Part shown: in pieces, positions 12,049 to 53,635 of the stretch
Position numbering within the stretch: position 1 is the stretch's first letter
How the letters are laid out: every line of letters starts with the position of its first letter
IMG/VR virus record: IMGVR_UViG_3300042298_004026
Reading direction: 5' to 3' (one strand)
DNA from: an uncultured virus (IMG/VR IMGVR_UViG_3300042298_004026)
Lineage: Duplodnaviria; Heunggongvirae; Uroviricota; Caudoviricetes
Length of the DNA stretch: 64,000 nucleotides
Position numbers and translations under genes: made by a program
The notes under the pieces: model-generated
What the model saw: only the letters and a program-made list of their open reading frames with translations
The model's database searches: none
Told to the model about the DNA's origin: nothing

Positions 12049-12064
12049 AATCAACTCCTATTAT

Positions 12065-12913
12065 TTAACGAAATATACCAGATGCATTACTCAGCGTAGT
12101 TGAAGAAGCAAGAGCATCCTGAATACTGCGTGGCTTGCGAATTGTTCTAAGCGCTTGCACAGCTGTTGTAAGTTTAACCAGCTTTTGCAGTGTGCTGAGT
12201 TTGCCGATGTTTGTATTGCTACTACCTTGAAATGGCTGTTTAACGTTGAGTAGCTCGGCATGCATAAAACAGAATGTGATCCCGAATTGCATGTAACCGT
12301 CGGTATCTTTCCATGAAAGTGACACGTCAGGAACAATTTTAGGAAATGCATTGTAAAGTCTATACTCTAAAATCTTATCGTTTTGCTCGTTGTATGTTGT
12401 TATATCGATATCAGCTTTGTAATTTTCCTTAAACTCAACTTCATATGGTGCAAGACCAGTTGCACTAGATTGACGTGATGAATTTATTTGACCATCGCCG
12501 TTAACAATCCCGTGCATCCATCCATAGAAAAACTTGTAAATTTCACCAGCACCATCACCAATGAAATTAAGAGTAATGTCATTGAACTGCATTGAATATG
12601 GGACGTTTTCGGTCGGTCCAATACCAAATCTCTTTATACTGTCGTCTGTTTGGATGCTGATTGCTGGTAGCTGAGCACCTTCTGCAAATAGAGAAATCTT
12701 TTGAACAGTGGCCGTTGACTTTTCATCCCCTTGCATTATTTTTGGAAAGGGGATCATTACATCAAAAAGATTTGTCCGACTGACGGACGAATTACGAATC
12801 TCTGTAAGGAAGCTGTTATATCGCCCCGTAGGCCCAGATTGCTTTTTTCCAAAAAGCGATTTGAGTGTTGCTAATGTACCAAGCGCGTTTAATCCCGTGT
12901 TCAGTAGACTCAT
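12065..12913 (-). CDS. Baseplate tail-tube initiator / tube-like monomer (gp54/gp19-like)
   Basis: SRTNLFDV...AQLPA...PY...DITLNF...LYNAFPK...LSW...ITF (tube fold). Position next to gp2. Confidence 0.75.
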   Translation of the reverse strand: MSLLNTGLNALGTLATLKSLFGKKQSGPTGRYNSFLTEIRNSSVSRTNLFDVMIPFPKIMQGDEKSTATVQKISLFAEGAQLPAISIQTDDSIKRFGIGPTENVPYSMQFNDITLNFIGDGAGEIYKFFYGWMHGIVNGDGQINSSRQSSATGLAPYEVEFKENYKADIDITTYNEQNDKILEYRLYNAFPKIVPDVSLSWKDTDGYMQFGITFCFMHAELLNVKQPFQGSSNTNIGKLSTLQKLVKLTTAVQALRTIRKPRSIQDALASSTTLSNASGIFR

Positions 12914-33913: not shown

Positions 33914-34143
33914 AATATCGTCCAGATACAAGCGACTCTAATTATATTCGAGATCCTCTGTCCAAAGCTGTTCTAAATATTGATATGGCAGGATATGAAC
34001 GGTTCAAAACGGAACGAGACTTCATACTAAGGCAGCAACAACTTGAAAATAGTGTGCATGATCTTAAAAAAGATTTGAATGAATTTAAAGACTTAATTAA
34101 ACAGTTAATTAACGGAAACACAAATGGCAAGACCAATAGCTAA
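33910..34143 (+). CDS. Small conserved coiled-coil protein
   Basis: RDPLSKAVLN.D...Y followed by a coiled coil ending LIKQLI. GTG start. Confidence 0.65.
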   Translation: MKYRPDTSDSNYIRDPLSKAVLNIDMAGYERFKTERDFILRQQQLENSVHDLKKDLNEFKDLIKQLINGNTNGKTNS

Positions 34144-36196: not shown

Positions 36197-36204
36197 GGTA
36201 AGTA

Positions 36205-37998
36205 ATGGCTGATACGTCAAGCAATGTTCAATTCAAGGTTGAAAATGGTCTCCTTGTTTTAGGTACCGCAAATGTTGCTGGACCAGCAGTGTTCAATGCC
36301 AACGTTGACATTAACGGGTCATATCTTTCTGTTACGGCAAATCTTCAAAGTAGCCTGGTTCCATTAAATAACACCTATTCACTTGGTAACGCAACATCGC
36401 GCTGGGCGTTGAGCGCAATGGGCGGTAGTTTTGTTGACAGTGTTTCAGTTACTAACACCTTATCAACAGGTAATACAACAATAACCGGTTTCGTCAACGT
36501 ATCATCCACAGCAAATATTGGTGGTGCAGCGACATTGAGAGGCACGCTAACGGTAAATGGTGCTGTAACTATTGCCAATACTCTAGCTACAGGTAATACA
36601 TCCATAACAGGTACACTGGCTGCTAATAATACAACTATAACAGGGTTTGTTAATGTATCATCAACAGCAAATATCGGTGGTGCCACGTCGTTAAGAAGTA
36701 CGTTGGTTGTAAACGGTGCTGTAACTATTGCCAATACTCTAGCTACAGGTAATACATCCATAACAGGGTTTGCAACAGTATCCACAACCCTTACTGTTAC
36801 AGGAGCGACAACACTTTCCAATACTCTTTCTGTAACAGGAAACACCACTCTTTCGAACACGCTAGCTGTTACTGGTAATACATCTCTCTCTAATAGTTTA
36901 ATCGTAACTGGTAATACGACCTTATCAAATACACTGGCTGTAACTGGTAACGTCGTTCTATCGAACACATTAGCTGTAACTGGTAATGTGACGTTTTCTA
37001 ATACGTTAGCGGTTACAGGTAATACCACTTTTTCAAACACTATTAATATTGCCGGTATCACAACCTTACGTAGCGCTGCCAATGTAGTTGGAGCAGCTGC
37101 AGCCTTCAATGCATTGACGGGTGTTGCAAACACGACGGAGTTCATCACCACAACGGCAGCACATGGCTTTAGTAATGGTGATCTGGTTCAGTACATTGTA
37201 TCGACTGGTAATACAGCTGTAACAGGTCTTGCAAATGGAACAAGTTACTACGTGGTTGAGGCGAATTCAACTGCATTCAAGTTATCCTCGTCGTATGGTG
37301 GATCAGTCATAAATCTAACCGCCAGTGTTAGTGAAGTTGGACATACTCTTACACCCCAACGAATTGTTCTATCAACGAATGGTAATATTGATAGTTCGTT
37401 AGGATTAGCTAACGTTGGCTCTTTACGTGTATTAGGGACCGCTGTTGTAAACGGTGCAGTAACGCTAGCTAGTACGTTAGGTGTTACTGGAGCAGCAACA
37501 TTTTCAAACACAATATCCGTAACAGGTAATGCGACCCTGTCAAACACGCTTGCTGTTACTGGTGCAACGACACTATCAAATACACTTGTTGTTTCGGGTA
37601 ACGCAACATTTGACACAGATTTGCTTTTCATTGATGCAGTAAACAACAGAATTGGATTCAAGAACACATCACCAAGCTCAACCGATCTAATAACTATATC
37701 AGGTAATACTGTACTTACTGGTTTAAGTGCAGCTATTCGTTTCCTATCGTCAAACGCAACACATAATGCGTCTATTACAATAGCCGGTAACACAACAAAT
37801 ACACGTACGACGTTTACTACATACGAAGCGAACGCAACAGCAAGTGATGGTGGTTTTATTTTCCAGGCAGCAAACGGAACAACAACCACATCTGTTCTAG
37901 CTTTTAATCAAACTGAGCTAAAGTATAAAACTGGTAATGTTGCACATGCAGGAAATTTTGGGATTTACGATGTAAGCGGTACGCGGCTAGGACCATGA
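36205..37998 (+). CDS. Fibre-like virion protein with 12-aa repeats and one H-G-F module
   Basis: FKVENGL N-terminus, YSLG...RW motif, NTLAVTG repeats, and an AHGFSNGDLVQY...YYVV...FKLS module. Confidence 0.7.
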   Translation: MADTSSNVQFKVENGLLVLGTANVAGPAVFNANVDINGSYLSVTANLQSSLVPLNNTYSLGNATSRWALSAMGGSFVDSVSVTNTLSTGNTTITGFVNVSSTANIGGAATLRGTLTVNGAVTIANTLATGNTSITGTLAANNTTITGFVNVSSTANIGGATSLRSTLVVNGAVTIANTLATGNTSITGFATVSTTLTVTGATTLSNTLSVTGNTTLSNTLAVTGNTSLSNSLIVTGNTTLSNTLAVTGNVVLSNTLAVTGNVTFSNTLAVTGNTTFSNTINIAGITTLRSAANVVGAAAAFNALTGVANTTEFITTTAAHGFSNGDLVQYIVSTGNTAVTGLANGTSYYVVEANSTAFKLSSSYGGSVINLTASVSEVGHTLTPQRIVLSTNGNIDSSLGLANVGSLRVLGTAVVNGAVTLASTLGVTGAATFSNTISVTGNATLSNTLAVTGATTLSNTLVVSGNATFDTDLLFIDAVNNRIGFKNTSPSSTDLITISGNTVLTGLSAAIRFLSSNATHNASITIAGNTTNTRTTFTTYEANATASDGGFIFQAANGTTTTSVLAFNQTELKYKTGNVAHAGNFGIYDVSGTRLGP

Positions 37999-37999
37999 A

Positions 38000-40900
38000 A
38001 TGGCAAGACCACTTAGAGCAAGATATGTTACAGCAAGTACAAGTGACGGTGTTCAGGAGATGTCGGATAGCGACATCAATGACCTTGTTATTCCTAGGAT
38101 AACCAACTTATTTTACGCTGCATCAAATACATCTGGCTACGGTAACAAACTCGAACTAAGAACTACACCACCAACTTGGAATTATGTTACTGGTGGGACT
38201 GTTCTTGATGTGTTTCCAACAGCTTTACCGCCCATCGGGACACATCCAGTAACTTCTTCGTCAACAACATACACGTTGTACCAAAATCTTGACACTGCAT
38301 TGACAACAAACTTTGATCTTATAACCAAACCTGTTAAAACAGAGGCAAGTGGTGGTGTTCAAAAGATTCAACAGTTTTCAAACAATGAAATCAGAGATGA
38401 TATTCATAGTAAAGTTATTGCTGAAATATCTGTTGGGGCACAAGGAGCTTACTGGCTTGGAACTTCACCACCAGGAACAGGTACGTGGATTGTTGTATCC
38501 TCAATAAACGATACTTTTGTTAACTCGACAAGCAATAGCACGCAAACAACCACATATAATTTGTATCAGCGCTCTACGAATAGTGGGTATGGTACAAAGA
38601 GGCCTTTAAAAGGTACAGCGAACGCTCTTACAGAGATGTCCGATGCTGAAATTGACACAATGACAGCGGCTATACGTGATTGTATTGCGGCTGGTATTGG
38701 TAGATATCAAATATCGACTACATCACCAACGCCTGGTACTTGGGTAGCTCGTGGTTCTTTCACAGATACACAGAATGGTATAGAGGATCAATCATATTCC
38801 GGTAGTTACTTGGGTACTTTTACAGGTGCGTTCAGTGGCATTTATAATCAAGCATTCACAGGAGCTTATCAGGGACAGTTTAATCGGGCATTTACAGGTA
38901 ACTTTATTGATACTTCTAAATTTACTGGTGCATTTGCAGGTGTGTATCAGCAAAATTTTACAGGTATCTATTCACGTATTTTTACTCGTGATACAAACAC
39001 CTCGTTTACGGGTGTTTATCAGAACACATATACAGGTAATTACACAGGTTTATTTGCGGGTGCATACTCACAGGTATTCTCCGGTGGATATTTGGGAAGT
39101 TATCAAGGCTCTACTTTTACTGGCGGCTTCAACCAGACTTTTGCTGGTACGTATGTGGGAACATTTACAGGACCATATTCAGGAAATTTCCAGGGCGTAA
39201 CATATTCAGGCGGATTCAATCAAAATTTTACTGGCGTATATGTAGGGGCGTTTTCAAGACCATATGCTGGGAACTTCCAAGGTATAACATATTCGGGTGG
39301 ATATAATCAGACTTTTGCCGGTACGTATGTGGGAACATTCACGGGACCATATTCTGGTTCTTATCAGGGTACAATATATCCTGGTGGGTATAATCAGACG
39401 TTTGCTGGAACATACAATCAAACGTTTACAGCTCAATACTCAGGGGATTTCCAGGGCGTAACATATTCAGGCGGTTACAATCAGACTTTCATAGGTGTAT
39501 ACGCAGGATCATTTTCAAGACCATATGCTGGGAATTTTCAAGGTATAACATATTCAGGTAGCTACAATCAAACCTTTGCCGGTACGTATAATCAAAGTTT
39601 TACCGGTGGATTTGTAAATAATTATGCCGGGACCTACTCACAGGCGTTCAGTGCCACGTACGCTGGTGGATATGTTGGGGACTTTTCAAGAGCATATACA
39701 GGTTCATATCAGAACACATATTCAGGGGCATATGCAAATACGTGGTCTCGAATATTTTCAAGAGCGTGGACGGGATCCTATACTGCTGCATATACGGGCG
39801 ATTATACTGGTGCATATACGAAGGCCTTTGCGCGACTTTTCACAGGAACATATACAGGCGCTTGGATTGGTAACTACACACGTGGCTTTGTAGGCCTATA
39901 TGGTTCAACATTCTCAAGAGGCTTCTCCTCCTTTTTCGTGGCCGCGTACACTTCAACGTATGCAGGAACTTATACAGGTAACTACACACGAGCTTTCACA
40001 CCATCGTTTCAAGGATCGTATGCACTTCCTTCTGTAGGCTCCTACGATGGGGATTACATAGCAGGTGGATTTACTGGGCCTTTCAACATCACGTATTATA
40101 CAGGTACATATCAGGGCACATATAACAGCTTTTTCACGGGTACGTATGAAGGTGCTTTCTCACGTATATTTGCCGGTAGTTATGCTGGTACATACCAAGA
40201 CCCCTATACAATAACATCATTTACGGGGCCATTTGCTGGTACAGGTTATTTTACAGGATCGTACGTTGGCAATTACCAAGGTAATTTTGGCGCTAGTTAT
40301 CAAACGACATTCCAGGGATTTTATTCGGGTTTATATACGCAGGCCTTTTTGAGAGCGTGGACGAACGTATTTGTATCAAGCTGGACATCACTGTATGCTG
40401 GTACATACTCAAGAGCATTTACAGGTGAATATCTCCAAAACTACATTGGATCGTATGAAGGAACATTCAGTAGAGAGTTCTCAGCCCCATATCAGGGATC
40501 ATATGAGAATAGTTGGTCAAGAATATTTACTGGTGATTGGACGGGGGGTTTTAGTACTAATTACACTGGTGGGTATGTTAATTTTTGGACAGGGTCTTAC
40601 ACGAGTACATATTCCAGGGTTTTTTCGGGAGCTTATACTGGTGTAATTACATACACGGGTGGGTTTGTTGGGTTATATGCAAATACGTGGGCAGGCAGTT
40701 ACACAGGACAATTTACTGGTGGCTATACTAGGGCGTTCACGGGTGACTATACGGCTACTTGGTCAGGATCCTATACCGGTGCGTACTCACAAAACTTTAC
40801 CGGTTCGTATACAGGGACCTTTACTGGTGGATATACGGCTACGTGGACCGGTACCTACTCAAGAGTATTCACAGGACAGTTTACAGGCGGATATACCGCG

Positions 40901-41548
40901 GTATTTACTGGTGCTTATACATCAACCTGGACAGGTTCATATGTAGGTTCATACTCACAAAACTTTTCTGGTAACTATGTAGGAACATTTACGGGTGCGT
41001 ATACATCCACTTGGACAGGTTCTTACACCGGATCGTATTCACAAAACTTTACTGGTATATACACAGGCACGTTCACAGGGGCATACACGGCTACGTGGAC
41101 GGGTGTATATTCTGGTGCGTATTCACGAAATTTTACAGGCGCATATACGGGTACATTCAGCGGCAACTACACAGCTACCTTTGCTGGGACGTACACGGGC
41201 GGTTATACACGAGCATTTTCTGGTACATACGCTGGTAACTACACGGGCGGGTTTATTGGTCAGTGGACAGGAGTATACAGCCGTATATTCACTGGTTTAT
41301 ATACCGGCGCGTTCACAGGCGTTTTTATTGGTAACTTTACAGGTAGTTATGTTGGGACATATTCACGTATATTTACGGGTGCATATACTGGTTTGTTCAC
41401 TGGCTCATATTCTGGAGCATATACGGGTGCTTTCAGTGGTAACTATGCTAATAATTTTACACGATTATTTACAGGGGCATACTCGGGTCTAACCGTCACC
41501 GGTACAACGACGACGACTACATATACATTATGGGTTAGAACAGCTTGA
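38000..41548 (+). CDS. Giant tetrapeptide-repeat protein A (1182 aa), putative virion fibre
   Basis: Three N-terminal RPL...EMSxxxI modules, about 900-aa [FYW]xGx array (38795-41491), C-terminal LWVRTA. Confidence 0.8.
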   Translation: MARPLRARYVTASTSDGVQEMSDSDINDLVIPRITNLFYAASNTSGYGNKLELRTTPPTWNYVTGGTVLDVFPTALPPIGTHPVTSSSTTYTLYQNLDTALTTNFDLITKPVKTEASGGVQKIQQFSNNEIRDDIHSKVIAEISVGAQGAYWLGTSPPGTGTWIVVSSINDTFVNSTSNSTQTTTYNLYQRSTNSGYGTKRPLKGTANALTEMSDAEIDTMTAAIRDCIAAGIGRYQISTTSPTPGTWVARGSFTDTQNGIEDQSYSGSYLGTFTGAFSGIYNQAFTGAYQGQFNRAFTGNFIDTSKFTGAFAGVYQQNFTGIYSRIFTRDTNTSFTGVYQNTYTGNYTGLFAGAYSQVFSGGYLGSYQGSTFTGGFNQTFAGTYVGTFTGPYSGNFQGVTYSGGFNQNFTGVYVGAFSRPYAGNFQGITYSGGYNQTFAGTYVGTFTGPYSGSYQGTIYPGGYNQTFAGTYNQTFTAQYSGDFQGVTYSGGYNQTFIGVYAGSFSRPYAGNFQGITYSGSYNQTFAGTYNQSFTGGFVNNYAGTYSQAFSATYAGGYVGDFSRAYTGSYQNTYSGAYANTWSRIFSRAWTGSYTAAYTGDYTGAYTKAFARLFTGTYTGAWIGNYTRGFVGLYGSTFSRGFSSFFVAAYTSTYAGTYTGNYTRAFTPSFQGSYALPSVGSYDGDYIAGGFTGPFNITYYTGTYQGTYNSFFTGTYEGAFSRIFAGSYAGTYQDPYTITSFTGPFAGTGYFTGSYVGNYQGNFGASYQTTFQGFYSGLYTQAFLRAWTNVFVSSWTSLYAGTYSRAFTGEYLQNYIGSYEGTFSREFSAPYQGSYENSWSRIFTGDWTGGFSTNYTGGYVNFWTGSYTSTYSRVFSGAYTGVITYTGGFVGLYANTWAGSYTGQFTGGYTRAFTGDYTATWSGSYTGAYSQNFTGSYTGTFTGGYTATWTGTYSRVFTGQFTGGYTAVFTGAYTSTWTGSYVGSYSQNFSGNYVGTFTGAYTSTWTGSYTGSYSQNFTGIYTGTFTGAYTATWTGVYSGAYSRNFTGAYTGTFSGNYTATFAGTYTGGYTRAFSGTYAGNYTGGFIGQWTGVYSRIFTGLYTGAFTGVFIGNFTGSYVGTYSRIFTGAYTGLFTGSYSGAYTGAFSGNYANNFTRLFTGAYSGLTVTGTTTTTTYTLWVRTA

Positions 41549-41554
41549 GAAAAA

Positions 41555-44500
41555 ATGCCACTTCGTCCGTTATACTATAATACATCGTTATCCGGATTAC
41601 AGGAGATGTCCAATACGGACATCGATGGATATATTTCAAATGTAATAGGTTCTGATTTTGCTTCGACAGAAGATATTGGATCTCTCATCGTGCAGGATCC
41701 AGGTGATCCGGTTCCTGCAAATTCTACCTCCATTGGTACATGGGTTGATACACGCTACGATCAACAAATAGGTGACCATCCTGTTTCAGAAGCGAATCTT
41801 GTTTATTCAAACACAACCATTTATCAAAGATTGGGTGGTGGACCATTAACGGACCCTTCAATGGTACGACCTATTTGCTGGAATGATACGCTTGATGGCG
41901 TACAGCAAATGGCGAATACGGATATTGACACAACCATTATTGCGAAGGCCGTTTCTTATATTGTCAATGGTGGTGTCGGTTCATATGTCCTGCAGCCGTC
42001 TGCACCAGTAACTGGTACGTGGGTTGTGAGAGGGCGATTGCAGAATACTGAACGTCCATACTTTGCCAATGAAACATTTCTCTGGCAAAAAACGTCTGAA
42101 AGTCCAAGCGGCTCTATAAAGCCTTTGAAATGGAGTACTAATGCTTTACGTGAGATGTCAAATAACGACATCAAAACCTTGACACATAGAGCAAGAAATT
42201 ACATCGCCAATACAGGTATAGGCACCTATCAATTATCCACAACCACCCCGTCATCAGGCGGAACGTGGGTTGAGGCGGGTACGGGATTCAATGATACCCG
42301 TCAAGAAATAAGACCTCAAACTTATAATGCTCAAGTGTATACAGCAACTTTTTCTGGTGTATATACACGGGCTTTTGTTGGCAAGTATCAAGGTAGTTTT
42401 ACTGGTTTGTATGGGATACCATACACACGTGAATTCACAGGTACATTCGCAGATACGTTTACCGGGGCTTTCAATCAGCAATTCACCGGAGCTTTTTCTA
42501 GCGGATATGCAACAACGTACACGGGTACGTTTAATCAGCAGTTCACTGGACAATTCACTGGCGCTTATACTGGTGGTTATACAGGAACATTTACCGGTGC
42601 TTACACGGGCGGATATACAGGTGCATTCACTGGTGTATATTCGGCGCCTTATGTGGGTAGCTTCACTGGTGTATATGTAGGGACGTTTAATCAGCAGTTT
42701 ACTGGCGCGTTCAGTGGTGTTTATCTAGGGACATATCAACAAAATTTCACTGGTGATTATGTTGGTGGCTTTACAGGTGCATTCAGCGGTGCTTATGCTC
42801 AAGCATTTACGGGTGCATATAGTTCAATCTTTACAGCAGCATATAGCGGTTCGTTTACAGGCCAGTTTTCGGGTTTATACACAGGCGCTTTCACGGGTGT
42901 ATATGTAGGAAGTTACGTGGGGAAATTCACAGGCGCATATACGGCTATCTATAGTAGATTGTTTACAGGGGACTACACAGGTATTTATACTGGTGCATAT
43001 AGTCAGAACTTCACCGGTGCCTTTACTGGTCAATTCAATCAAGTGTTTACAGGTACGTTCGCTGGTGGTTATGCAGGAACGTTTAACCAAGTATTTACGG
43101 GCACATTTGCAGGTACTTACAGTAGCCTGTTCTCTGCAATATACACAGGCAACTACACTGGTATATACAGCCAAGCGTTTACAGGTGCATTCACGGGTAT
43201 TTTTAATCAGGCTTTCACAGGTAACTTTGTTGGTAATTATGTTGGTAACTATCAGCAAACATTTACGGGAGCTTTTGCAGGAACATACAGCAGTTTATTC
43301 ACGGGAAGCTACACAGGTAACTACACAGGATTATATAACCAAGTATTTACAGGAACGTTTGCTGGAACATATAGCCAAGTATTTTCGGGTAGCTATACCG
43401 GTAATTACACGGGATTATATAACCAAGTTTTTACAGGTACTTTTGCGGGAACATATAGTAGATTATTCACAGGAAGCTATACAGGCAATTACACAGGCAT
43501 ATACAATCAAATATTCACAGGTACCTTCGCAGGCACTTACAGTAGATTATTCACGGGAAGCTATACAGGTAATTACACTGGCATATACAATCAAGTATTT
43601 ACAGGTGCGTTTGTAGGAAATTATGCCGGGTCGTTTACTGGTTCGTTTGCTGGTGGATACACAGGTGCTTTTTCCGGTTCATACACAGGCGCTTACACAG
43701 GAATTTATGCAGGTTCATATGTAGGAAATTACCAGGGAAACTTTACTGGTTCATTTGCAGGAACATATAGTAGATTATTTATAGGTTCGTATTCGGGTGG
43801 GTACACACGTGCATTCACAGGAGCTTACACAGGAATTTATTCGGGCGGGTACGTAGGCTCCTTCACGGGTTTGTACTCCGGTGGGTATGTAGGTTCTTTC
43901 ACAGGTATTTACTCAGGCGGATACACGAGAGCTTTCTCGGGATCATACACTGGATCATATACTGGAACATACGCCGGAACGTACACAGGTTTGTATTCAG
44001 GTGGGTATGTCGGATCGTTTACGGGCATATACTCAGGCGGATACACGAGGGCTTTCTCGGGATCATACACTGGATCATATACTGGAACATACGCCGGAAC
44101 GTATACAGGCATATATGCTGGTGGATATGTGGGGTATTTTACGGGCATATACTCAGGCGGATACACGAGAGCTTTCTCGGGATCATACACTGGATCATAT
44201 ACTGGAACATACGTAGGAACGTATACAGGCATATATGCTGGTGGGTATGTGGGGTATTTTACTGGAATATACTCTGGTGGGTATACAAGAGCTTTCTCAG
44301 GATCATATACTGGATCATATACTGGAACATACGCCGGAACGTATACGGGTTTGTATTCAGGTGGTTATGTCGGATACTTTACAGGCATATATTCAGGTGG
44401 TTATGTTGGATACTTTACAGGAATATATGGTGGCACGTACAGTAGGTTATTCACAGGTGCCTACGCGGGTGGATATATTGGGTACTTCACAGGAATATAT

Positions 44501-47500
44501 GGCGGTACGTATAGTAGATTATTCACAGGCGCCTACGCGGGTGGGTATGTTGGTTACTTTACAGGAATATATGGTGGTACATATAGTAGATTATTTACAG
44601 GTACATACTCTGGAAGTTATCAAGGCAATTTCACGGGGCTCTATTCAGGTACATATAGTAGATTATTTACTGGCAGCTATACAGGATTATATTCCGGAAA
44701 CTTTCAGGGTAACTTTACAGGTGCTTTTGCTGGTACGTATAGTCGATTGTTTACGGGTTTATATACAGGATCATACTCTCGTGGGTTCACGCGGGTCTTC
44801 ATCGGGACTTATCAAAGAGGGTTCATAGGGTCATATGCAGGTAGCTTCAATAATACATTCACACCAACATTTGCTGGAGCTTACGCTCGGGCCTTTATTG
44901 GAGTTTATGCAGGATCGTACCAAAACCCATTCACTGGAATATATTTCACTGGTTATTACACTGGTTTTTACATTAATTTTTTTACAGGAACTTATCAGGG
45001 AGCGTTCACGCGTTTGTTCACAGGGGCATATACAGGCGTTTATCAAGATCCTTACGTCATTTTAACTTTTACGGGGCCATTTGCTGGTCCAGGTTTTTTC
45101 GCGGGTACCTATGGGGGTTCTTATGTAGGTGTGTTTGGCGCCTCATATAGTAGGCTATTTACAGGCTTTTATTCAGGATCATATACTGGTGATTTTACGG
45201 GAGCGTTTGCTCGGGTGTTCACAGCAACATGGACAGGGTCCTATGCAGGATCTTATCAAGGCAACTTTACAGGAAGTTTTGCGGGTACGTATAGTAGATT
45301 GTTTACTGGGCAGTATTCTGGCGCTTATGCAGGATCCTATCAGGGTAACTTCACAGGTACTTTTGCTGGTACGTATAGTAGATTATTTACGGGTACGTAC
45401 TCGGGCAACTACCAAGGCAACTTCTCCGGGATATATGCAGGATCATATGCACAGACGTTTACTGGAATATACTCCGGCAATTACCAAGGCAACTTTTCCG
45501 GAACATATGCGGGTGCATATGCACAGACTTTCACAGGAATATATTCCGGCAATTATCAAGGCAACTTCTCAGGAACATATGCAGGAGCATATGCACAAAC
45601 ATTTACAGGTGCATATGCAGGGGCATATGCTCAAACATTTACAGGTACTTACGCAGGCGGATATACAGGCTATTATTCTGGCGCCTATGCTGGTACATAT
45701 TCGGGTGCATTCAATCAAACATTTACAGGTGCATATGCAGGGGCATATGCTCAAACATTTACAGGTACTTACGCAGGCGGATATACAGGCTATTATTCTG
45801 GGGCATATGCTGGAACGTATTCGGGCTCATTTAACCAGACATTTACGGGTGCATTTGCAGGGGCATATGCTCAAACATTTACAGGTACTTACGCAGGCGG
45901 ATATACAGGCTATTATTCTGGCGCTTATGCTGGTACATACTCAGGAGCATTTAACCAGACATTTACAGGTGCATTCGCCGGTGTATATCAACAAACCTTT
46001 ACGGGTACGTATTCAGGTGGATATATTGGATACTATTCTGGCGCTTATGCTGGTACATACTCAGGAGCATTTAACCAGACATTTACAGGTGCATTCGCTG
46101 GTGTATATCAACAAACATTTACCGGTTCTTACTCGGGTACATATCAGCAAACGTTTACAGGTGGGTATGCAGGGACATATTCAGGGTCTTATAATCAGAC
46201 ATTTACAGGCGCTTTTTTAGGTAGTTATGAAAGTTCTTTCACTGGATTTTATTCAGGTGCCTATAGTAGATTATTCACTGGTAGCTACACAGGTGCGTAT
46301 ACTGGAATATATGTGGGTTCCTATGTTGGTACATTTAATCAAACATTTACGGGTAGTTTTGCAGGCACATATTCAAGAGTATTTTCGGGATTATATTCCG
46401 GTGGCTACACGGGTGCATTTACTGGAATATATGCCGGTGCTTATGTTGGCAACTTCCAAGGCAATTTCACAGGTAACTACTCTGGTGGCTACACAGGTGC
46501 ATTTACTGGAATATATGCTGGTGCTTATGTTGGCAACTTCCAAGGCAACTTCACAGGAAATTATTCAGGTGGATATACAGGAACATTTTCGGGAATATAT
46601 GCTGGTAGTTATGTAGGAGGGTATCAGGGCAACTTCACAGGAAATTATTCAGGCGGATATACCGGCACATTTACTGGTGTATATGCAGGCGCTTATGTTG
46701 GAAGCTATCAAGGGAATTTCACTGGAAGTTTTATTGGTGGCTACACACGTGTGTTCTCGGGCACATATTCCGGTGTATATACGGGTGTTTACACAGGTCA
46801 ATTTACAGGGATATACTCAACGTTATTTACAGGTGCATTCAGTGGGATATACGCAGGCGGATATGGTGGGAGTTTTCTAGGAAACTTCTCAGGGCTGTAT
46901 TCGGGCGGATACACAGGAGCGTTTACAGGTATTTACACAGGTATCTACACAGGTGGGTATACTGGCACCTTTACTGGAGCATACTCAACACAGTTTACAG
47001 GTACATTTACAGGTGGATATGCAGGCACGTATGCCGGTGCCTACCAAGGCAACTTCACAGGCGTGTTCCAAGGTACGTACCAACAATCATTTACAGGTAA
47101 TTACACCGGCATATACAGCCAAGCATTTAGTGGTACATATAACCAAGCATTCACAAGAAACTTTACTTTTGATTATACCGGTACGTTTTCGGGACCATAT
47201 GTAGGATTTTTCACTGGAAGTTATTCACAAGTCTTCAGTAGATTTTTTACAGGATCATATACGGGTCAGTTCACAGGCGCTTATTCGGGCATATACAGTC
47301 AAGCCTTTACAGGTGCGTTCTCTGGCAATTATACAGGTATCTACAGTCAAGCATTCACAGGTGCTTACACGGGTATATTCAATCAAACATTCACTGGCGA
47401 TTTCGTAGGAAAATTTAATCAAACCTTCAGCGGTATTTTCATTGGTTCCTATAATCAACAATTCACTGGTGCTTTTAGTGGTGGGTATACGGCGGTGTAT

Positions 47501-47983
47501 ACTGGCGCTTACAGTCAAGCCTTTACTGGTACATTCAGCGGCATTTATACTGGTCAGTTTTCTGGTGCGTACACGGGAGCATTTGGTTCATTGTTTACAG
47601 GAGTATACAGCCGTATATTCACTGGATCTTATTCGAGCGCATTCACAGGCCAGTTTAACCAATCGCCTGTTTACACGAGCGTGTATTCAAGACCATATGC
47701 TGGCGTGTATGGTCAGACGTTTAGTAGTACGACATATCCAGGTGCGTTTTATGCACAAGCGTTTACAGGAGAGTACACAGGATCGTATACAGGAACCTCT
47801 ATCTTTGGGTTCACAAGTAGTTTTTCTAAAGCATTTACTAGTTTGTTAGGTTCTTTTTCATCGTTATTTACAGGACTATATACTAACATAACAGGGCAAT
47901 ATCTAGCAGCTTGGTCGGGGTTGACAATAATGTCAACGCCGGAAACAATTCAAACACTTAAACTTTGGGTACGAACAGCATGA
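41555..47983 (+). CDS. Giant tetrapeptide-repeat protein B (2142 aa), paralogue of A
   Basis: Same N-terminal module triplet, about 1860-aa [FYW]xGx array (42338-47923), C-terminal LWVRTA. Confidence 0.8.
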   Translation: MPLRPLYYNTSLSGLQEMSNTDIDGYISNVIGSDFASTEDIGSLIVQDPGDPVPANSTSIGTWVDTRYDQQIGDHPVSEANLVYSNTTIYQRLGGGPLTDPSMVRPICWNDTLDGVQQMANTDIDTTIIAKAVSYIVNGGVGSYVLQPSAPVTGTWVVRGRLQNTERPYFANETFLWQKTSESPSGSIKPLKWSTNALREMSNNDIKTLTHRARNYIANTGIGTYQLSTTTPSSGGTWVEAGTGFNDTRQEIRPQTYNAQVYTATFSGVYTRAFVGKYQGSFTGLYGIPYTREFTGTFADTFTGAFNQQFTGAFSSGYATTYTGTFNQQFTGQFTGAYTGGYTGTFTGAYTGGYTGAFTGVYSAPYVGSFTGVYVGTFNQQFTGAFSGVYLGTYQQNFTGDYVGGFTGAFSGAYAQAFTGAYSSIFTAAYSGSFTGQFSGLYTGAFTGVYVGSYVGKFTGAYTAIYSRLFTGDYTGIYTGAYSQNFTGAFTGQFNQVFTGTFAGGYAGTFNQVFTGTFAGTYSSLFSAIYTGNYTGIYSQAFTGAFTGIFNQAFTGNFVGNYVGNYQQTFTGAFAGTYSSLFTGSYTGNYTGLYNQVFTGTFAGTYSQVFSGSYTGNYTGLYNQVFTGTFAGTYSRLFTGSYTGNYTGIYNQIFTGTFAGTYSRLFTGSYTGNYTGIYNQVFTGAFVGNYAGSFTGSFAGGYTGAFSGSYTGAYTGIYAGSYVGNYQGNFTGSFAGTYSRLFIGSYSGGYTRAFTGAYTGIYSGGYVGSFTGLYSGGYVGSFTGIYSGGYTRAFSGSYTGSYTGTYAGTYTGLYSGGYVGSFTGIYSGGYTRAFSGSYTGSYTGTYAGTYTGIYAGGYVGYFTGIYSGGYTRAFSGSYTGSYTGTYVGTYTGIYAGGYVGYFTGIYSGGYTRAFSGSYTGSYTGTYAGTYTGLYSGGYVGYFTGIYSGGYVGYFTGIYGGTYSRLFTGAYAGGYIGYFTGIYGGTYSRLFTGAYAGGYVGYFTGIYGGTYSRLFTGTYSGSYQGNFTGLYSGTYSRLFTGSYTGLYSGNFQGNFTGAFAGTYSRLFTGLYTGSYSRGFTRVFIGTYQRGFIGSYAGSFNNTFTPTFAGAYARAFIGVYAGSYQNPFTGIYFTGYYTGFYINFFTGTYQGAFTRLFTGAYTGVYQDPYVILTFTGPFAGPGFFAGTYGGSYVGVFGASYSRLFTGFYSGSYTGDFTGAFARVFTATWTGSYAGSYQGNFTGSFAGTYSRLFTGQYSGAYAGSYQGNFTGTFAGTYSRLFTGTYSGNYQGNFSGIYAGSYAQTFTGIYSGNYQGNFSGTYAGAYAQTFTGIYSGNYQGNFSGTYAGAYAQTFTGAYAGAYAQTFTGTYAGGYTGYYSGAYAGTYSGAFNQTFTGAYAGAYAQTFTGTYAGGYTGYYSGAYAGTYSGSFNQTFTGAFAGAYAQTFTGTYAGGYTGYYSGAYAGTYSGAFNQTFTGAFAGVYQQTFTGTYSGGYIGYYSGAYAGTYSGAFNQTFTGAFAGVYQQTFTGSYSGTYQQTFTGGYAGTYSGSYNQTFTGAFLGSYESSFTGFYSGAYSRLFTGSYTGAYTGIYVGSYVGTFNQTFTGSFAGTYSRVFSGLYSGGYTGAFTGIYAGAYVGNFQGNFTGNYSGGYTGAFTGIYAGAYVGNFQGNFTGNYSGGYTGTFSGIYAGSYVGGYQGNFTGNYSGGYTGTFTGVYAGAYVGSYQGNFTGSFIGGYTRVFSGTYSGVYTGVYTGQFTGIYSTLFTGAFSGIYAGGYGGSFLGNFSGLYSGGYTGAFTGIYTGIYTGGYTGTFTGAYSTQFTGTFTGGYAGTYAGAYQGNFTGVFQGTYQQSFTGNYTGIYSQAFSGTYNQAFTRNFTFDYTGTFSGPYVGFFTGSYSQVFSRFFTGSYTGQFTGAYSGIYSQAFTGAFSGNYTGIYSQAFTGAYTGIFNQTFTGDFVGKFNQTFSGIFIGSYNQQFTGAFSGGYTAVYTGAYSQAFTGTFSGIYTGQFSGAYTGAFGSLFTGVYSRIFTGSYSSAFTGQFNQSPVYTSVYSRPYAGVYGQTFSSTTYPGAFYAQAFTGEYTGSYTGTSIFGFTSSFSKAFTSLLGSFSSLFTGLYTNITGQYLAAWSGLTIMSTPETIQTLKLWVRTA
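43262..46729 (+). repeat. Mirror-arranged tandem repeat blocks in protein B: 84 nt x4, 120 nt x4, 72 nt x3, centre, 72 nt x3, 120 nt x4, 84 nt x4
   Basis: Blocks at 43262-43597, 43874-44353, 44390-44605, 45398-45613, 45614-46093 and 46394-46729. Confidence 0.88.
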
Positions 47984-48423
47984 AACGAACTATTGTAAAT
48001 CCGCATTGGGTAAACAATGCAAGAACAGTTATCTCTGCTGAATTTCATTATGATGACGGTAGGGTAGCGCAGGCAACGATTTCCGAGTCGGATGTTACTA
48101 ATCCAGACCTTGTTGAAATTAAATCAAAATTTACGGACGAGCAACTTGAAGCTAACACGCGTAAAAAAATTCAAGAGATCAATGCCGAGCGTGAGCGTAA
48201 GCATCAGGAAGAATTGGCTAAGGCTCAACGAAAACAACAAGAAGAATTGTTTGCAGCTAAGCTAAGAATTTTTGAGATCGACGCCATTAAAGAATCAGAT
48301 AATCGAGTGCTCAAAGCAAAGATAAGAAAGTCAAAGAGTGATGTTGAGGCTATGGCGTGGGCCTCGGCTTTGTTGCTTGATATAGCCCAAAAGGAAATAG
48401 CAACAAATTCAACGGCGGAGTAA
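47980..48423 (+). CDS. Hypothetical protein, possible fibre assembly chaperone
   Basis: ATGA-coupled to protein B. Small beta N-terminus plus charged helix ending LFAAKLRIFEI..IK.S....K.KIRKSK. Confidence 0.6.
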   Translation: MKRTIVNPHWVNNARTVISAEFHYDDGRVAQATISESDVTNPDLVEIKSKFTDEQLEANTRKKIQEINAERERKHQEELAKAQRKQQEELFAAKLRIFEIDAIKESDNRVLKAKIRKSKSDVEAMAWASALLLDIAQKEIATNSTAE

Positions 48424-48425
48424 AA

Positions 48426-49160
48426 ATGAATATTCGTAATGGTTTTTTAATTGTTGCATCACAACTCAAAGAGTATCTAGATTCGGCAAATTATCTGGCG
48501 AGTAGTATAAAAGACTACTATCCCGAAGCACACATCACTCTTTTTGTAACTCCAAAGCTAGAGCAATATGCTGACCGCAGTGCCTTTGATCTAGTTATAT
48601 CTGAGGATGTTCCGAACCATGTGCGTACAAAGTTGTACGCTCTCTCCAGAACACCATACACTGAGCTTACTGTTTATGTTGATGCAGATATGGAGTGCAT
48701 GCACTCTGATGTCTCGAATATTTGGGATGAAATGCCTGAGGATTGTGACCTCCTGATTACAAAAATACGTCCCTATAACGGTAAAGAGGATCGTTGGCCG
48801 GGAGGTGCGACGATACCTCAAGGCCGTATGATATATCATGGTGGTTTTTTTATGTACAGATCAAACCCACAAACACTTGAGTTTATGCGTAGGTGGTGGG
48901 AGGATTATAAATTACAAAGAAGTGAACCATGGCCTTATCCTGAAGAAGAGTGTAGGAAGTCCTTTGCTCAATGGGATCAATTTACTTTTTGGAAACTTTT
49001 AGCTGTTGACAAGCTAGATGTTAAGGTAGGTGTTTTTGATGATGATGCAAGATGGAATTTTGTAAATGGTTATTATCCAAAAGAAGCCAAAAAAGAGATC
49101 GTTTTTTGGCACCACACTATTCCTTCTAAGCACGAAAATATAGGGATCAAAGCTAAATGA
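48426..49160 (+). CDS. GT-A fold glycosyltransferase (GT8-like)
   Basis: SIKDYYPEAHITLF...KLYAL..TPY...TVYVDAD (DxD)...HGGFF...WDQF..W...RWN...HH. Confidence 0.75.
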   Translation: MNIRNGFLIVASQLKEYLDSANYLASSIKDYYPEAHITLFVTPKLEQYADRSAFDLVISEDVPNHVRTKLYALSRTPYTELTVYVDADMECMHSDVSNIWDEMPEDCDLLITKIRPYNGKEDRWPGGATIPQGRMIYHGGFFMYRSNPQTLEFMRRWWEDYKLQRSEPWPYPEEECRKSFAQWDQFTFWKLLAVDKLDVKVGVFDDDARWNFVNGYYPKEAKKEIVFWHHTIPSKHENIGIKAK

Positions 49161-49789
49161 AAGAAATTCAAATAAACAATAAAGAACTTAAACAAATTTT
49201 AAATGATTGGTTAGAGGTTCTTTTGAGAGCAGATCGTTCGAAATATCCCTATCAAGCAGGCGTGGGTAAAACTGGATTAGTGACTCCAGAGTATGCATGT
49301 AGTATGGAATACTTGCAACACATGCAAAGTAAAAAAGTAGACGGATTCCCAGAAACAACACATGGTGTTGATCTAATGAGGTTTCGACCACCACACCAAT
49401 CCCTTGCCGACGCTTTGGTAAAGCTAGACTACGATCTACTCAATTGGTCTGGATCGCGCAACAATGCGGTTAAGATGCTCTATCCTAAAGGCGGGTATAT
49501 GGGCTGGCATCATAATGCAAACGCGCCCGGTTATAACATTCTTTTATCATGGTCTGAAAAAGGTACAGGTTTCTTTCGTTACCAAGATCCAATAACAAAA
49601 GAGATTGTCACGATGCAGGACACGCCTGGGTGGACGTGTAAAGTTGGATATTATGGACCATGGCATGAGCCGGATCGAATCTACTGGCACTGCGCAAGCG
49701 CACATGAAGAAGAGCGGGTAACGCTAGGGTATATCATTCCTCATGAAGGGATGTGGAATAATATGTGCGATGATATTCAGTCAGCGTAA
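49157..49789 (+). CDS. Putative Fe(II)/2OG oxygenase-like (cupin) protein
   Basis: YPKGGYMGWHHNANAPGYNIL...YWHCA...RVTLG. Confidence 0.55.
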   Translation: MKEIQINNKELKQILNDWLEVLLRADRSKYPYQAGVGKTGLVTPEYACSMEYLQHMQSKKVDGFPETTHGVDLMRFRPPHQSLADALVKLDYDLLNWSGSRNNAVKMLYPKGGYMGWHHNANAPGYNILLSWSEKGTGFFRYQDPITKEIVTMQDTPGWTCKVGYYGPWHEPDRIYWHCASAHEEERVTLGYIIPHEGMWNNMCDDIQSA

Positions 49790-50511
49790 TATTTTCTAAA
49801 GAAGTGTTCGTAGTGTTTGGGTAGGGTTGGACCGTTAAAAAGTATCACAGGTATTTTTTTAACGGTCTCAACAAACTTACTTTCTCTATATGCTTTTTGG
49901 ACTGGGTCGTACAACGCATTCTCTTCAATGTCTACGCCGTAAAGAAAAGAATAAAATTTTCTTGTTGGAAAATATCCAATATTCACGTTGATATTTTCTT
50001 TCTCATAAAACAAAAAAGAGTCCATACCCCATCTATATTTGTTCATAAATGATTCAGGATCTCTAGATACAAACTCCCAAATTTTTTGTGGTTTGTTTTC
50101 TTGCCACGTCATGCAACTACTGTTAAACGGATGGTGAAATATTGGGAAACCATAGTCCCATTTTGGTCTCCACTCTGCTTCAATTAGTGTTAGCTCATTA
50201 TGATTAAAAGCAGTGATGTCGTTAATGTCGTGTTTAATGACAACATCGAGATCAAAAAAAATACGATCACCAGTTGGTAGTTGATCGTTTACTTGCTCAC
50301 TGAACAGAAACATCTTATTGTAGACGACGATATCAAACTCGTTTTCAACATATTCAATGATATTGATACCATGTGAAATCCCTTCGGGATTGTCCGTGTA
50401 GCAGAACATCTTGAATGGTCTTGCTATGTTCTTGCGGCACATCCTAAATAAGTTATTGACCATAGAGCTAGGGTATTTCGTACCAACTTTAACACATAAA
50501 ATAGTGAGCAT
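49777..50511 (-). CDS. GT-A fold glycosyltransferase
   Basis: ILCVKVGTKY...VNNL..M...FCYTD...K..LF...FFDLDVVI (DxD)...FNSSCM.W. Start is at 50511 or 50517. Confidence 0.75.
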   Translation of the reverse strand: MLTILCVKVGTKYPSSMVNNLFRMCRKNIARPFKMFCYTDNPEGISHGINIIEYVENEFDIVVYNKMFLFSEQVNDQLPTGDRIFFDLDVVIKHDINDITAFNHNELTLIEAEWRPKWDYGFPIFHHPFNSSCMTWQENKPQKIWEFVSRDPESFMNKYRWGMDSFLFYEKENINVNIGYFPTRKFYSFLYGVDIEENALYDPVQKAYRESKFVETVKKIPVILFNGPTLPKHYEHFFRKYYAD

Positions 50512-50515
50512 TTCC

Positions 50516-51118
50516 ATGGATATTCAATATCTAACAAAAATTTCAGATGTTTTAAGGAAGGGTGTGTCTACAGGGTTAAATGTGTTTGATTTCGCTAATT
50601 CATTCAGTCAAACACAACTCGAATCAAAAAAATGGTTGGTTGAAGAATTAAGTAAAGTTTCATTCAAGAAACAACCCACCATACTTATATTGGGTGGATG
50701 GTACGGAAGCTATCTTGTTCCACTGCTACGGCAGCATGTAAAACCTGATCACATATATTTCAATGATATCGACAGATCGTGTTTAGACGTTGCAAAAGAG
50801 TTACATACCAGATACAAAGAAGATAGAAGTATAAGTTTCCACCATTTTGATGCTACAGCAATGTTTCATCATTTTGATGCTGATATCGTTATAAACACTT
50901 CATGTGAGCACATGGAGCAGTACGAGGAGATGTTGAAGGAGGGCCAAGATACGTTATTCGTACTGCAGTCGTGTGATGAGGAAAGTGACCCGGGTCACGT
51001 AAACGTTTCCAAATCAACACAAGATTTTTTACACAAAGTTGGGTTAACGCGCGTATACATGCAGTCGAGAAAGAACCTTGGACACAAAAACAGGTTTTTG
51101 ATCATAGGTAAACAATAG
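50516..51118 (+). CDS. Class I SAM-dependent methyltransferase-like protein
   Basis: SFS..QLESKKWL...ILILGGWYG...FNDID...DIVINTSCEHM...LQS...RFLIIG. Confidence 0.65.
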   Translation: MDIQYLTKISDVLRKGVSTGLNVFDFANSFSQTQLESKKWLVEELSKVSFKKQPTILILGGWYGSYLVPLLRQHVKPDHIYFNDIDRSCLDVAKELHTRYKEDRSISFHHFDATAMFHHFDADIVINTSCEHMEQYEEMLKEGQDTLFVLQSCDEESDPGHVNVSKSTQDFLHKVGLTRVYMQSRKNLGHKNRFLIIGKQ

Positions 51119-51709: not shown

Positions 51710-53635
51710 ATGGCAAATTTAATTCAAATTAAACGAAGTGAAACGACAGCAATACCAACTTCACTGGAAGACGGCGAGTTAGCCTATACTAGTAATGGTG
51801 AAGTACTATTTATTGGTAGCAATGGTGTCGTTATTCCTATTGGTGGTCAACGGGTTCCTGGTGTTTTAACGGCTAACCAAGCTCTTGTTGTTAACTCTTC
51901 AAGTTCTATTGACTCTATCAAGGTCGCAAACCTTGTACCGACAAAGATTTATGCAAATGGTTCCCATGGTAGTGTGGGCCAGGTTCTTGTGTCTGATGGT
52001 GCAAATGTGTTTTGGGGTACAGGCACAGCTGGCACTAATACAACCATTCAGTTTAACGACTCTGGTACAGCAAACGGTATTGCAGCATTTACGTTTAATA
52101 AAGATACGAATACAATGTTTGTATCTGGCGCTATTACTGTTGGCTCAAATGTCATTACAAATACTTCTACTATTAGTATCGGTAACAGTACAGTTAACAC
52201 GACCGCCAATTCGTCTGAGCTTCGTGTAAATGGTACTATAGTTAATAGTTCTATTGTCCAGGTTGCTGGACAATTCCGAGGCTATACAGCTAACGTCAGT
52301 ACAAGTATTGAAGTTGGTTCAAATGTGTTTGTCAACACATCGACTATATCCGTTGGTAATTCAACAGTCAACACGCAGATAACCGGTTCACGTATACTGG
52401 TTGGTGGTGCCGATGATAGTTCCAATGTCACTTCAGGTGCGGTTGTTATTGATGGTGGTTTAGGTGTTGGTAAGAGAATAAACACAAAAGAACTAGCTGT
52501 TGGTAACACAACTGTTTATTCGTCTGCAAATGGTACGACAATTGTAACACAAGACGTGTTAGCAACAGGTACTGTGAATGCGACAGTTTTGAGTGTCGGC
52601 GGTTCGGTTGTAGGTAACAACAGCGGTATCTTTACATCAGGTGTTGTCAACGGTGATATTGTCCAGGTCGGTTCTAACTTTAGAGCCAACACAACACAAA
52701 CATCTGTTGGAACGTTCTTAACTGTTGCTGGTAATGCAGTTGTTAATGGTCAGCTCACAGTTAACAACACAGCTGCTCTTGGTAACACAACCATCACCGG
52801 TTTTGCAAATGTTTCAACATCGTTGAATGTAACTGGTGCAGCAACAGTCAATGGTGCCTTGACGGTTAACAACACAGCGGCTGTTGGTAACACAACAATA
52901 ACAGGTTCGTTAGGCACAACAGGTGCAGCAACAGTCAATGGTGCGTTTACTGTTAACAATACAGCAAGTGTTGGTAATACAACAATCACAGGCTCGGCTA
53001 ATGTAACAGGTCACCTACAAGCTAATTCTTTGAGTGTTGGTGACACAACAATCAGTGGTAACCTAACCGTTACAGGCACACTTACAACCGTCAGTGCCAA
53101 TAATATCAGCATCACCGATTCAATGATCCAGCTGGCATCTAACAATACAACAACAGATGTGCTGGACATCGGTTTGTTTGGTAGTTATGAAGCCGGTGAT
53201 AGTGGTAACCATGAACATACTGGTTTCTTCAGAGATGCAAGTGATTCGGGTGTTTGGAAACTGTTCGAGGGACTAGAAGTCTCCCCTACCACAACCGTCG
53301 ATACAGGTAATAATACTTTTGAATTTGCAACGTTGCAAACATTCTTGAAAACGGGTGGTGCAGGTTTAACAGGTTTAATAGCAAACTCAACAACTATTGC
53401 TTTAACTGCAAACAGTACATTGAATGTTGCGATCGTTGCTAACACATTGACACTATCAACAGCTCTTGCTGGTAATTCTGGTGGTACTGGTCTTGCAAGT
53501 TATACAGCTGAAGATATCCTTGTTGCAAACAGCACAAATGGCTTTAGAAAACTTGCACTGGGTACAGCAGGTCATGTATTACAAAGTAATGGTACAGCAT
53601 TGATTTATTCAACATTGGACGGTGGTTCGTTCTAA
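51710..53635 (+). CDS. Tail-fibre-like protein
   Basis: N-terminal IQIKRS...P..L.DGELAY motif, internal TVNNTA.VGNTTITG repeats, C-terminal LDGGSF. Confidence 0.7.
   Translation: MANLIQIKRSETTAIPTSLEDGELAYTSNGEVLFIGSNGVVIPIGGQRVPGVLTANQALVVNSSSSIDSIKVANLVPTKIYANGSHGSVGQVLVSDGANVFWGTGTAGTNTTIQFNDSGTANGIAAFTFNKDTNTMFVSGAITVGSNVITNTSTISIGNSTVNTTANSSELRVNGTIVNSSIVQVAGQFRGYTANVSTSIEVGSNVFVNTSTISVGNSTVNTQITGSRILVGGADDSSNVTSGAVVIDGGLGVGKRINTKELAVGNTTVYSSANGTTIVTQDVLATGTVNATVLSVGGSVVGNNSGIFTSGVVNGDIVQVGSNFRANTTQTSVGTFLTVAGNAVVNGQLTVNNTAALGNTTITGFANVSTSLNVTGAATVNGALTVNNTAAVGNTTITGSLGTTGAATVNGAFTVNNTASVGNTTITGSANVTGHLQANSLSVGDTTISGNLTVTGTLTTVSANNISITDSMIQLASNNTTTDVLDIGLFGSYEAGDSGNHEHTGFFRDASDSGVWKLFEGLEVSPTTTVDTGNNTFEFATLQTFLKTGGAGLTGLIANSTTIALTANSTLNVAIVANTLTLSTALAGNSGGTGLASYTAEDILVANSTNGFRKLALGTAGHVLQSNGTALIYSTLDGGSF

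Follow-up and report, generated by a model that had tools for sequence, protein, structure and literature searches.

A 2142-residue protein of a T4-like phage with mirrored repeat arms and a probable out-and-back antiparallel fold

The locus and the 2142-residue protein

The stretch of DNA analysed here (the window, 64,000 nucleotides of the uncultured Caudoviricetes virus IMGVR_UViG_3300042298_004026 in IMG/VR) is the structural region of a T4-like phage. One of its open reading frames encodes a protein of 2142 residues, most of which is an array of aromatic-x-Gly-x tetrapeptides. Scans of Pfam, PHROGs and NCBIfam assigned it to no family, sequence searches against solved structures gave no credible match, and a word-indexed protein search gave 0 matches among 2163 candidates. 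A preliminary description of this DNA had pointed to tandem duplications mirrored between the two halves of the protein, and had proposed that the chain runs out and folds back on itself as an antiparallel ribbon or a paired solenoid. The parts of the gene are listed below; P0029 is a 387-residue relative for which a structure model was made.

41555-47983, plus strand: whole gene of the hairpin protein, 2142 residues (open reading frame)
41555-42319, plus strand: base domain, residues 1-255, three repeats, the third without its last strand (repeat layout, BLASTP, P0029 model)
42434-44860, plus strand: outgoing arm in register, residues 294-1102, aromatic-x-Gly-x tetrapeptides (one register, 197/203 rungs)
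43262-43597, plus strand: 28-residue block, outgoing arm (this and the five blocks below by self-comparison and Tandem Repeats Finder)
43865-44404, plus strand: 40-residue block, outgoing arm
44390-44605, plus strand: 24-residue block, outgoing arm
44861-45157, plus strand: tip region, residues 1103-1201, two Pro turn-like motifs (variable among relatives; resembles the tip of the neighbouring paralog)
45158-47584, plus strand: returning arm in register, residues 1202-2010 (register analysis)
45398-45613, plus strand: 24-residue block, returning arm
45596-46126, plus strand: 40-residue block, returning arm
46394-46729, plus strand: 28-residue block, returning arm
47936-47980, plus strand: C-terminal strand completing base repeat 3 (family C-terminal motif, P0029 model)

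Mirrored repeat blocks

An aromatic residue recurs every fourth position through most of the array and is followed two places later by Gly in 79% of the units; Thr and Ser are frequent at the non-aromatic positions. Protein self-comparison detects periods of 28 (residues 584-680), 40 (771-950) and 24 (952-1016) in the outgoing arm, and of 24 (1282-1352), 40 (1348-1524) and 28 (1614-1724) in the returning arm. Tandem Repeats Finder gives 84 nt x 4.1, 120 nt x 4.4 and 72 nt x 2.9 copies on the way out and 72 nt x 2.9, 120 nt x 4.4 and 84 nt x 4.3 on the way back, so that both methods confirm blocks of equal period and copy number, in reverse order, where the preliminary description had placed them. 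The centres of the paired blocks sum to 2294.5, 2296.5 and 2301, a spread of 6.5 residues that was equalled in 11 of 75,126 random non-overlapping block placements. It also holds that the paired blocks are neither copies of one another (a cross-arm match of 30 residues or more is absent within the protein) nor inverted repeats at the DNA level (0 of 16 short inverted repeats are centred on the axis near nt 45,008). The mirrored 28-, 40- and 24-residue blocks are real, and they belong to a wider pattern of which they are the part that shows.

The runs holding the gene are lake metagenomes, and contigs from four of them cover most of it, nearly all at 99% identity or higher. Identity between tandem copies at third codon positions is only 0.44-0.72. 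Because the copies differ at these positions and the contigs of the four runs agree, the array is not an assembly echo. That the blocks themselves were created by assembly is hardly credible: no contig listed from the lake runs spans from one 40-residue block to the other, as such an artefact would allow, but the third-position differences, a frame that is open throughout and relatives with mirrored blocks of their own all speak against it. No copy-number variants were seen in the contigs of the four runs, although contigs drop rare forms. Joints in these contigs were set aside, since their sides were of 28-29 bases and their loose ends read like the paralog. No RNA run was found to carry the gene among the runs listed, and promoter scans were at or near chance level.

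Pairing register and a rule for the rungs

Pairing between the arms was examined in the family. Of 137 distinct complete members 101 could be anchored at both ends, 85 of which were kept as non-redundant, and outgoing units were compared with returning units by means of the end anchors only, the array itself playing no part in fixing the register. A single pair of positions is conspicuous, with an aromatic-aromatic mutual information of 0.333 versus 0.022 after shuffling (z 41). Like aromatics face each other (Tyr/Tyr or Phe/Phe) in 556 of 650 Phe/Tyr pairs, and the two residues at the Gly position before the aromatics are also coupled once the aromatics are given (z 41). With the window protein by itself, a simple scan for mutual information gave an ambiguous result.

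A rung can be described as four residues, namely two aromatics whose positions sum to 2304 in the window protein and the two Gly-position residues that precede them. Two Gly never go with Phe/Phe, one Gly goes with Phe/Phe, and with no Gly the aromatics pair like with like, mostly as Tyr/Tyr. In the window protein Phe/Phe occurs in 0 of 131 Gly/Gly rungs and in 65 of 73 others. At the sum of 2304, 205 of 212 rungs obey the Gly/Phe/Tyr rule, compared with a mean fraction of 0.68 and a maximum of 0.80 at other registers; a count of 198/202 compares with maxima of 0.80 in 5000 unit shuffles and 0.83 in a parallel control. Outside the tandem blocks the rule is followed by 109 of 113 rungs. The pairing sum of about 2297 first suggested is thereby corrected to 2304 for aromatic pairs and 2302 for an aromatic against a Gly position. 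An apparent slip of +28 in the 28-residue block, seen in an alignment of Phe and Tyr only, disappeared under the fuller rule (32/32 at 2304).

Since the rule was framed after the table for the window protein had been seen, the fair tests are the relatives that came later. Four that were retrieved once the two-part rule stood obey it in 167/178, 165/169, 196/205 and 129/144 rungs (90-98%), with one register each. The third rung type (no Gly, Tyr/Tyr) came from marine members, and with all three clauses eleven long proteins, picked for having one clear register, comply at 90-99% versus means of 0.44-0.73 at other registers. Across the 85 members, 495 of 580 in-phase rungs comply versus 0.52-0.66 at shifts of 4 or 8. 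The rung code holds as a statistical rule; the side-chain packing behind it is what we infer.

The base domain and the strand that closes it

Repeats 2 and 3 of the base are related by BLASTP at E 3e-12. The distance from a conserved Trp to an Arg of the last strand is 29 residues in repeat 1, 23 in repeat 2 and 1902 in repeat 3, the matching last strand of repeat 3 being the C-terminus of the protein. Among 138 complete members this last distance spans 44-1902 residues, and marine members of 2317-2590 residues push it further. Of 210 family sequences, 150 terminate in a strict form of the C-terminal motif; the remainder are open-ended, fragments or motif variants.

The structure model is a single-chain AlphaFold2 prediction of P0029, not of the window protein. 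The base and the last 20 residues are predicted at a local confidence score (pLDDT) of 90 or above, with long strands at 240-268 and 349-385. Each repeat contributes three core strands and an added helix, the ninth strand being supplied by the C-terminus. Foldseek gave no match at E 0.001 against PDB and BFVD. A fold search (VIA) aligned residues 42-387 of P0029 to MABP-type beta-prisms, which took all of the first five places with Z of 7.2, 7.0, 6.2, 5.8 and 4.0 (next row 2.8); the alignments cover 108-122 residues at 7-13% identity with a root mean square deviation of 3.8-5.0, and all Z are below 8, which the tool rates as middling.

A one-way solenoid or an unstructured low-complexity tract, with a mirror that arose from DNA duplication or by chance, is a very improbable account of these data. 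The array is indeed of low complexity, and a model of its central 309 residues, which was not used, had a mean pLDDT of 34; yet a single register holds outside the tandem blocks, the parallel control fails, no DNA inverted repeat lies on the axis, and the C-terminus closes the N-terminal domain. The same points separate the protein from parallel beta-solenoid fibres of the beta-helix or pentapeptide type, which coil one way, and no support was obtained for the paired solenoid offered as an option in the preliminary description. Even taken together, a one-way solenoid and an artefact are unlikely.

Another arrangement has two straight chains lying antiparallel, each C-terminal strand closing the base of its partner, in a dumbbell of double length with no turn. 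Identical covariation is expected from such a swapped dimer, which a single-chain AlphaFold2 run could not detect. Its weak points lie at the centre of the array and in the base. Short members break the 4-residue phase centrally with loops containing Gly and Pro, and Pro is enriched 7-fold in 33 tips. Where the long insert sits in repeat 3, repeats 1 and 2 carry a short hairpin, and some members have very short inserts. We consider the dimer unlikely.

Length change among relatives

Five relatives of 1792-2142 residues share a pair of conserved landmarks that lie opposite each other, and their register does not change on the way inward to the tip region; net gains have therefore been equal in both arms. 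Mirrored blocks of their own are found in the relatives at L042 (36/36 and 24/24), L046 (40/40) and L050 (24/24 and 40/40), and several blocks in relatives have no partner above threshold. In L003 the 40-residue block types of the window protein are found with their arms exchanged, at 83-88% identity, as would be permitted if the pairing is two-fold symmetric. Between the window gene and its relatives, identity is 82-94% for array residues while third codon positions are mostly near background, a pattern of sequence change that indicates purifying selection on the repeats.

The pairing of insertions is not strict. The L002 protein has a 173-residue domain in the outgoing arm only, between two tetrapeptides, and the register resumes at +173 with 58/58 rungs; the insert (11951-12469) matches the head-spike fibre domain NF048003 at E 2e-24. 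The same protein has an extra 40-residue copy in the returning arm only, possibly due to assembly collapse. Marine members L061, L065, L067 and L068 have one unpaired tetrapeptide and a register switch by 4 near residues 842-850; the switch is missing in L060. These five marine proteins (2317-2590 residues) use a Lys/Gln/Glu-rich repeat dialect with the third rung type. In the 1182-residue paralog of the window, 29-residue units face 28-residue units, and one residue of register is gained per 29-residue unit.

The preliminary description asked that every insertion in one arm have a partner of equal length in the other, and took unpaired indels in homologues as evidence against its proposal. 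In this form the claim was too strict, as such indels are found in L002, in the four marine members and in the paralog; but the register resumes after each. The covariation, the single register, the relatives and the P0029 model lend strong support to the underlying idea of an antiparallel chain that runs out and back and evolves with its two arms coupled through the register. In our reading the spare pieces bulge out of a paired structure, with the register picked up again beyond them, and they may be intermediates of a two-step duplication.

Genomic setting, tips and neighbouring genes

The following features lie around the gene.

38000-41548, plus strand: paralog, 1182 residues, same architecture, 29-residue units opposite 28-residue units (sequence comparison, register analysis)
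21317-22957, plus strand: irregular aromatic/Gly tetrapeptide insert, residues 399-945 of a baseplate wedge protein (20123-25567) (repeat and relative comparison)
47980-48423, plus strand: conserved neighbour, 147 residues, possible chaperone or anchor (locus conservation)
48426-49160, plus strand: GT-A glycosyltransferase-like gene, invariant DxD (locus conservation, motif)
49157-49789, plus strand: possible 2OG-Fe(II) oxygenase-like gene, weak, invariant His-x-Asn, His and Arg (locus conservation, residues)

The paralog directly precedes the 2142-residue gene and likewise has no Pfam or PHROGs family. Family scans place baseplate hub and wedge genes upstream and neck, terminase, sheath and portal genes downstream, so that the gene sits in the tail module with baseplate wedge genes on one side and neck, sheath and portal genes on the other. 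The wedge insert is optional: it is absent in L104, L111 and L112, about 265 residues long in L106, and 530-560 residues long in the window, L102, L103 and L109.

A profile of the base domain retrieved at least 443 representatives (clustered at 50% identity), all without a family name, as well as 49 viral and 41 metagenome loci. The only GenBank phage with a relative among the records searched was C48C1 (Kyanoviridae). Its protein of 3347 residues (L004, 14983-25026) has Arg-rich repeats with several globular domains inserted; an exact duplication within it may have been produced by the assembly. Prokaryote genomes gave one match, on a 26.9-kb contig of a metagenome bin that is probably a piece of phage.

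Close relatives have sharply different tips. In 5 of the 10 genomes with two paralogs, the tip of one paralog is closest to that of the other paralog of the same genome (the short paralogs having been centred manually). Variable tips shared between paralogs fit an adhesion fibre with an exchangeable end. In L046 (10001-13894), L050 (10001-13453) and L086 (2125-5877) the tip consists of modules rich in Arg and aromatics, two or three in tandem, the modules of L046 and L050 being 35-37 residues long; such tips suggest a branched, multivalent end.

Of 44 loci with room for it, 39 have the 147-residue gene directly behind their last hairpin gene, and the order 147-residue gene, GT-A gene, oxygenase candidate is kept in 34 of the 44. 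Two more genes extend the cassette in the window (47980-51118): one for a further glycosyltransferase, encoded on the minus strand, and one that is methyltransferase-like. PDB profile searches with the three downstream genes found nothing significant, the glycosyltransferase giving glycogenin-like rows at E 0.25. The three are possible assembly and modification factors of the fibre. Alternatively, what they modify may be DNA or other proteins of the virion; both uses of phage glycosyltransferases are named in PMC12619734.

A hairpin that does not bind the host is a less likely alternative, though a more serious one than the dimer. It could be a passive appendage (drag, shield or glycan carrier), a ruler or scaffold, or have an intracellular role. 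Glycosyltransferase-like genes follow the hairpin gene in most loci, and the Thr/Ser-rich positions would suit a glycan carrier. Set against this are the divergence of tips among close relatives, their sharing between paralogs, and the head-spike domain grafted into the L002 protein.

An out-and-back fibre

Our preferred reading, to which we give a probability of roughly 65%, is an out-and-back antiparallel fibre on the virion. Most likely the chain leaves a small base, runs out for about 850 residues, turns and returns, its halves matching rung by rung. In the third repeat of the three-repeat, beta-prism-like base, the loop joining strands 2 and 3 would project outward; this loop would be the roughly 850 residues of aromatic-x-Gly-x repeats, the chain would turn at the variable tip and come back antiparallel, and its last residues would close the base. 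This layout is drawn from the sequence anatomy, the covariation and the model of the short relative. An extended strand rises about 3.3 A per residue, and the rod could reach about 280 nm if fully extended. Its length would change by slippage duplication, a gain in one arm being tolerated as a bulge and usually matched later in the other; the bulges are seen in the relatives, and the order of the duplication events is what we infer.

The rod would be displayed on the virion as a fibre carrying an exchangeable tip for host contact. For this role we count the location between baseplate and neck, the optional presence of the same repeat type in the wedge protein and the head-spike domain in the L002 arm.

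Several observations weigh against the out-and-back fibre. The hairpin of the P0029 model has pLDDT below 50 over most of its length, its arms being without confident structure, and the covariation is the same for pairing within a chain and between chains. The rule was worded after tables that included the window protein, and its third clause was added after L060 had been seen. At least five in-phase rungs occur in only 38 of the 85 members, 11 of which fall below 80%; many irregular members could not be assessed with one fixed register. Irregular steps seldom have a mirror partner at the anchor register (10/313), the wedge inserts have no clear mirror register (best 13/16, in L106), and unpaired inserts exist in L002 and four marine members. 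The family is known here from genes alone, with one relative in a GenBank phage.

A fuller version is offered tentatively, at somewhat less than even odds. Filaments of 250-350 nm would form from a single self-complementary chain, with a three-state code fixing the register over 800-1100 residues; bulges and domains would loop out, blocks would flip arms, paralogs would trade tips, and the linked glycosyltransferase and oxygenase would decorate the Thr/Ser-rich outer face.

Comparison with known systems

The first five structures in the fold search were MVB12B (3tow), Plu-MACPF (2qp2), Mp2Ba1 (8b6v) and MPEG1/perforin-2 (6sb1, 6u23). With the MABP beta-prism the base shares three internal repeats of three strands each, as judged from sequence and the P0029 model. 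The MABP (P2) domain of MPEG1 has one loop extended to a long hairpin whose tip binds membranes, and this MABP was itself found only by structure (PMC6753088). MABP loops or hairpin tips bind acidic membranes; the tips of the family studied here are modestly enriched in Arg (2.2-fold). The MABP signature is PXGY at strand 2, as defined in PMC2881412; the consensus here, P-x-x-G-T-W in repeats 2 and 3, is similar but differently spaced. MABP proteins differ further in that the hairpin here can exceed 2000 residues and is periodic, there is no pore-forming domain, and each repeat has an extra helix. No MABP entry was listed in the PDB profile search or the Pfam scans of the family. The base appears prism-like, with a middling match, and we do not assign it to MABP.

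Most of the phage fibres known are trimers of parallel chains, which lengthen module by module in a single direction. The core of the T4 gp37 needle uses His-x-His iron sites, whereas His is not common at any of the four array positions here. The gp37 tip of the T4 long tail fibre, 215 residues overall, is a six-stranded needle made by three chains, with antiparallel strands and a receptor site at the far end (PMC9659904). Both are phage proteins with antiparallel strands that run out to a tip and back (here judged from covariation and register), but the arms here are about 850 residues each and the sequences are unrelated; no tetrapeptide code is described for gp37 in the part of PMC9659904 used. 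The nearest precedents, the gp37 needle and the MPEG1 hairpin, are much shorter, and neither has a repeat code described for it.

Two-stranded beta ribbons that stand alone are usually regarded as unstable when long. Aromatic-over-glycine packing across strands ('aromatic rescue of glycine') and aromatic zippers are known in short model hairpins. The family shares with them aromatics and Gly that alternate on one strand face and covary across strands; it differs in having about 200 rungs and a three-state rule, with a hydrogen-bond register of 2302 or 2304. A description of this architecture was not found in the literature, mainly openly accessible texts. We regard the architecture as new; the job, that of a phage fibre, is probably a familiar one.

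If correct, this would amount to a mode of constructing very long virus fibres that has not been described, and the filament would be a protein counterpart of a nucleic-acid hairpin. A fold-back rod can be read from sequence when the halves are read against each other. The family provides a natural test of how compensating insertions arise, with apparent intermediates in L002, L061, L065, L067 and L068, and it offers a written pairing rule for an isolated two-stranded ribbon that is testable in short synthetic hairpins.

Other proteins of the window

Three Asn/Thr/Val-rich proteins with 12-residue repeats, encoded at 34124-37998 and 51710-53635 and common to a subset of related loci, are probably conventional fibre or shaft proteins. 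On the minus strand, 6670-9558 encodes a 962-residue protein with a phage lysozyme domain near its C-terminus.

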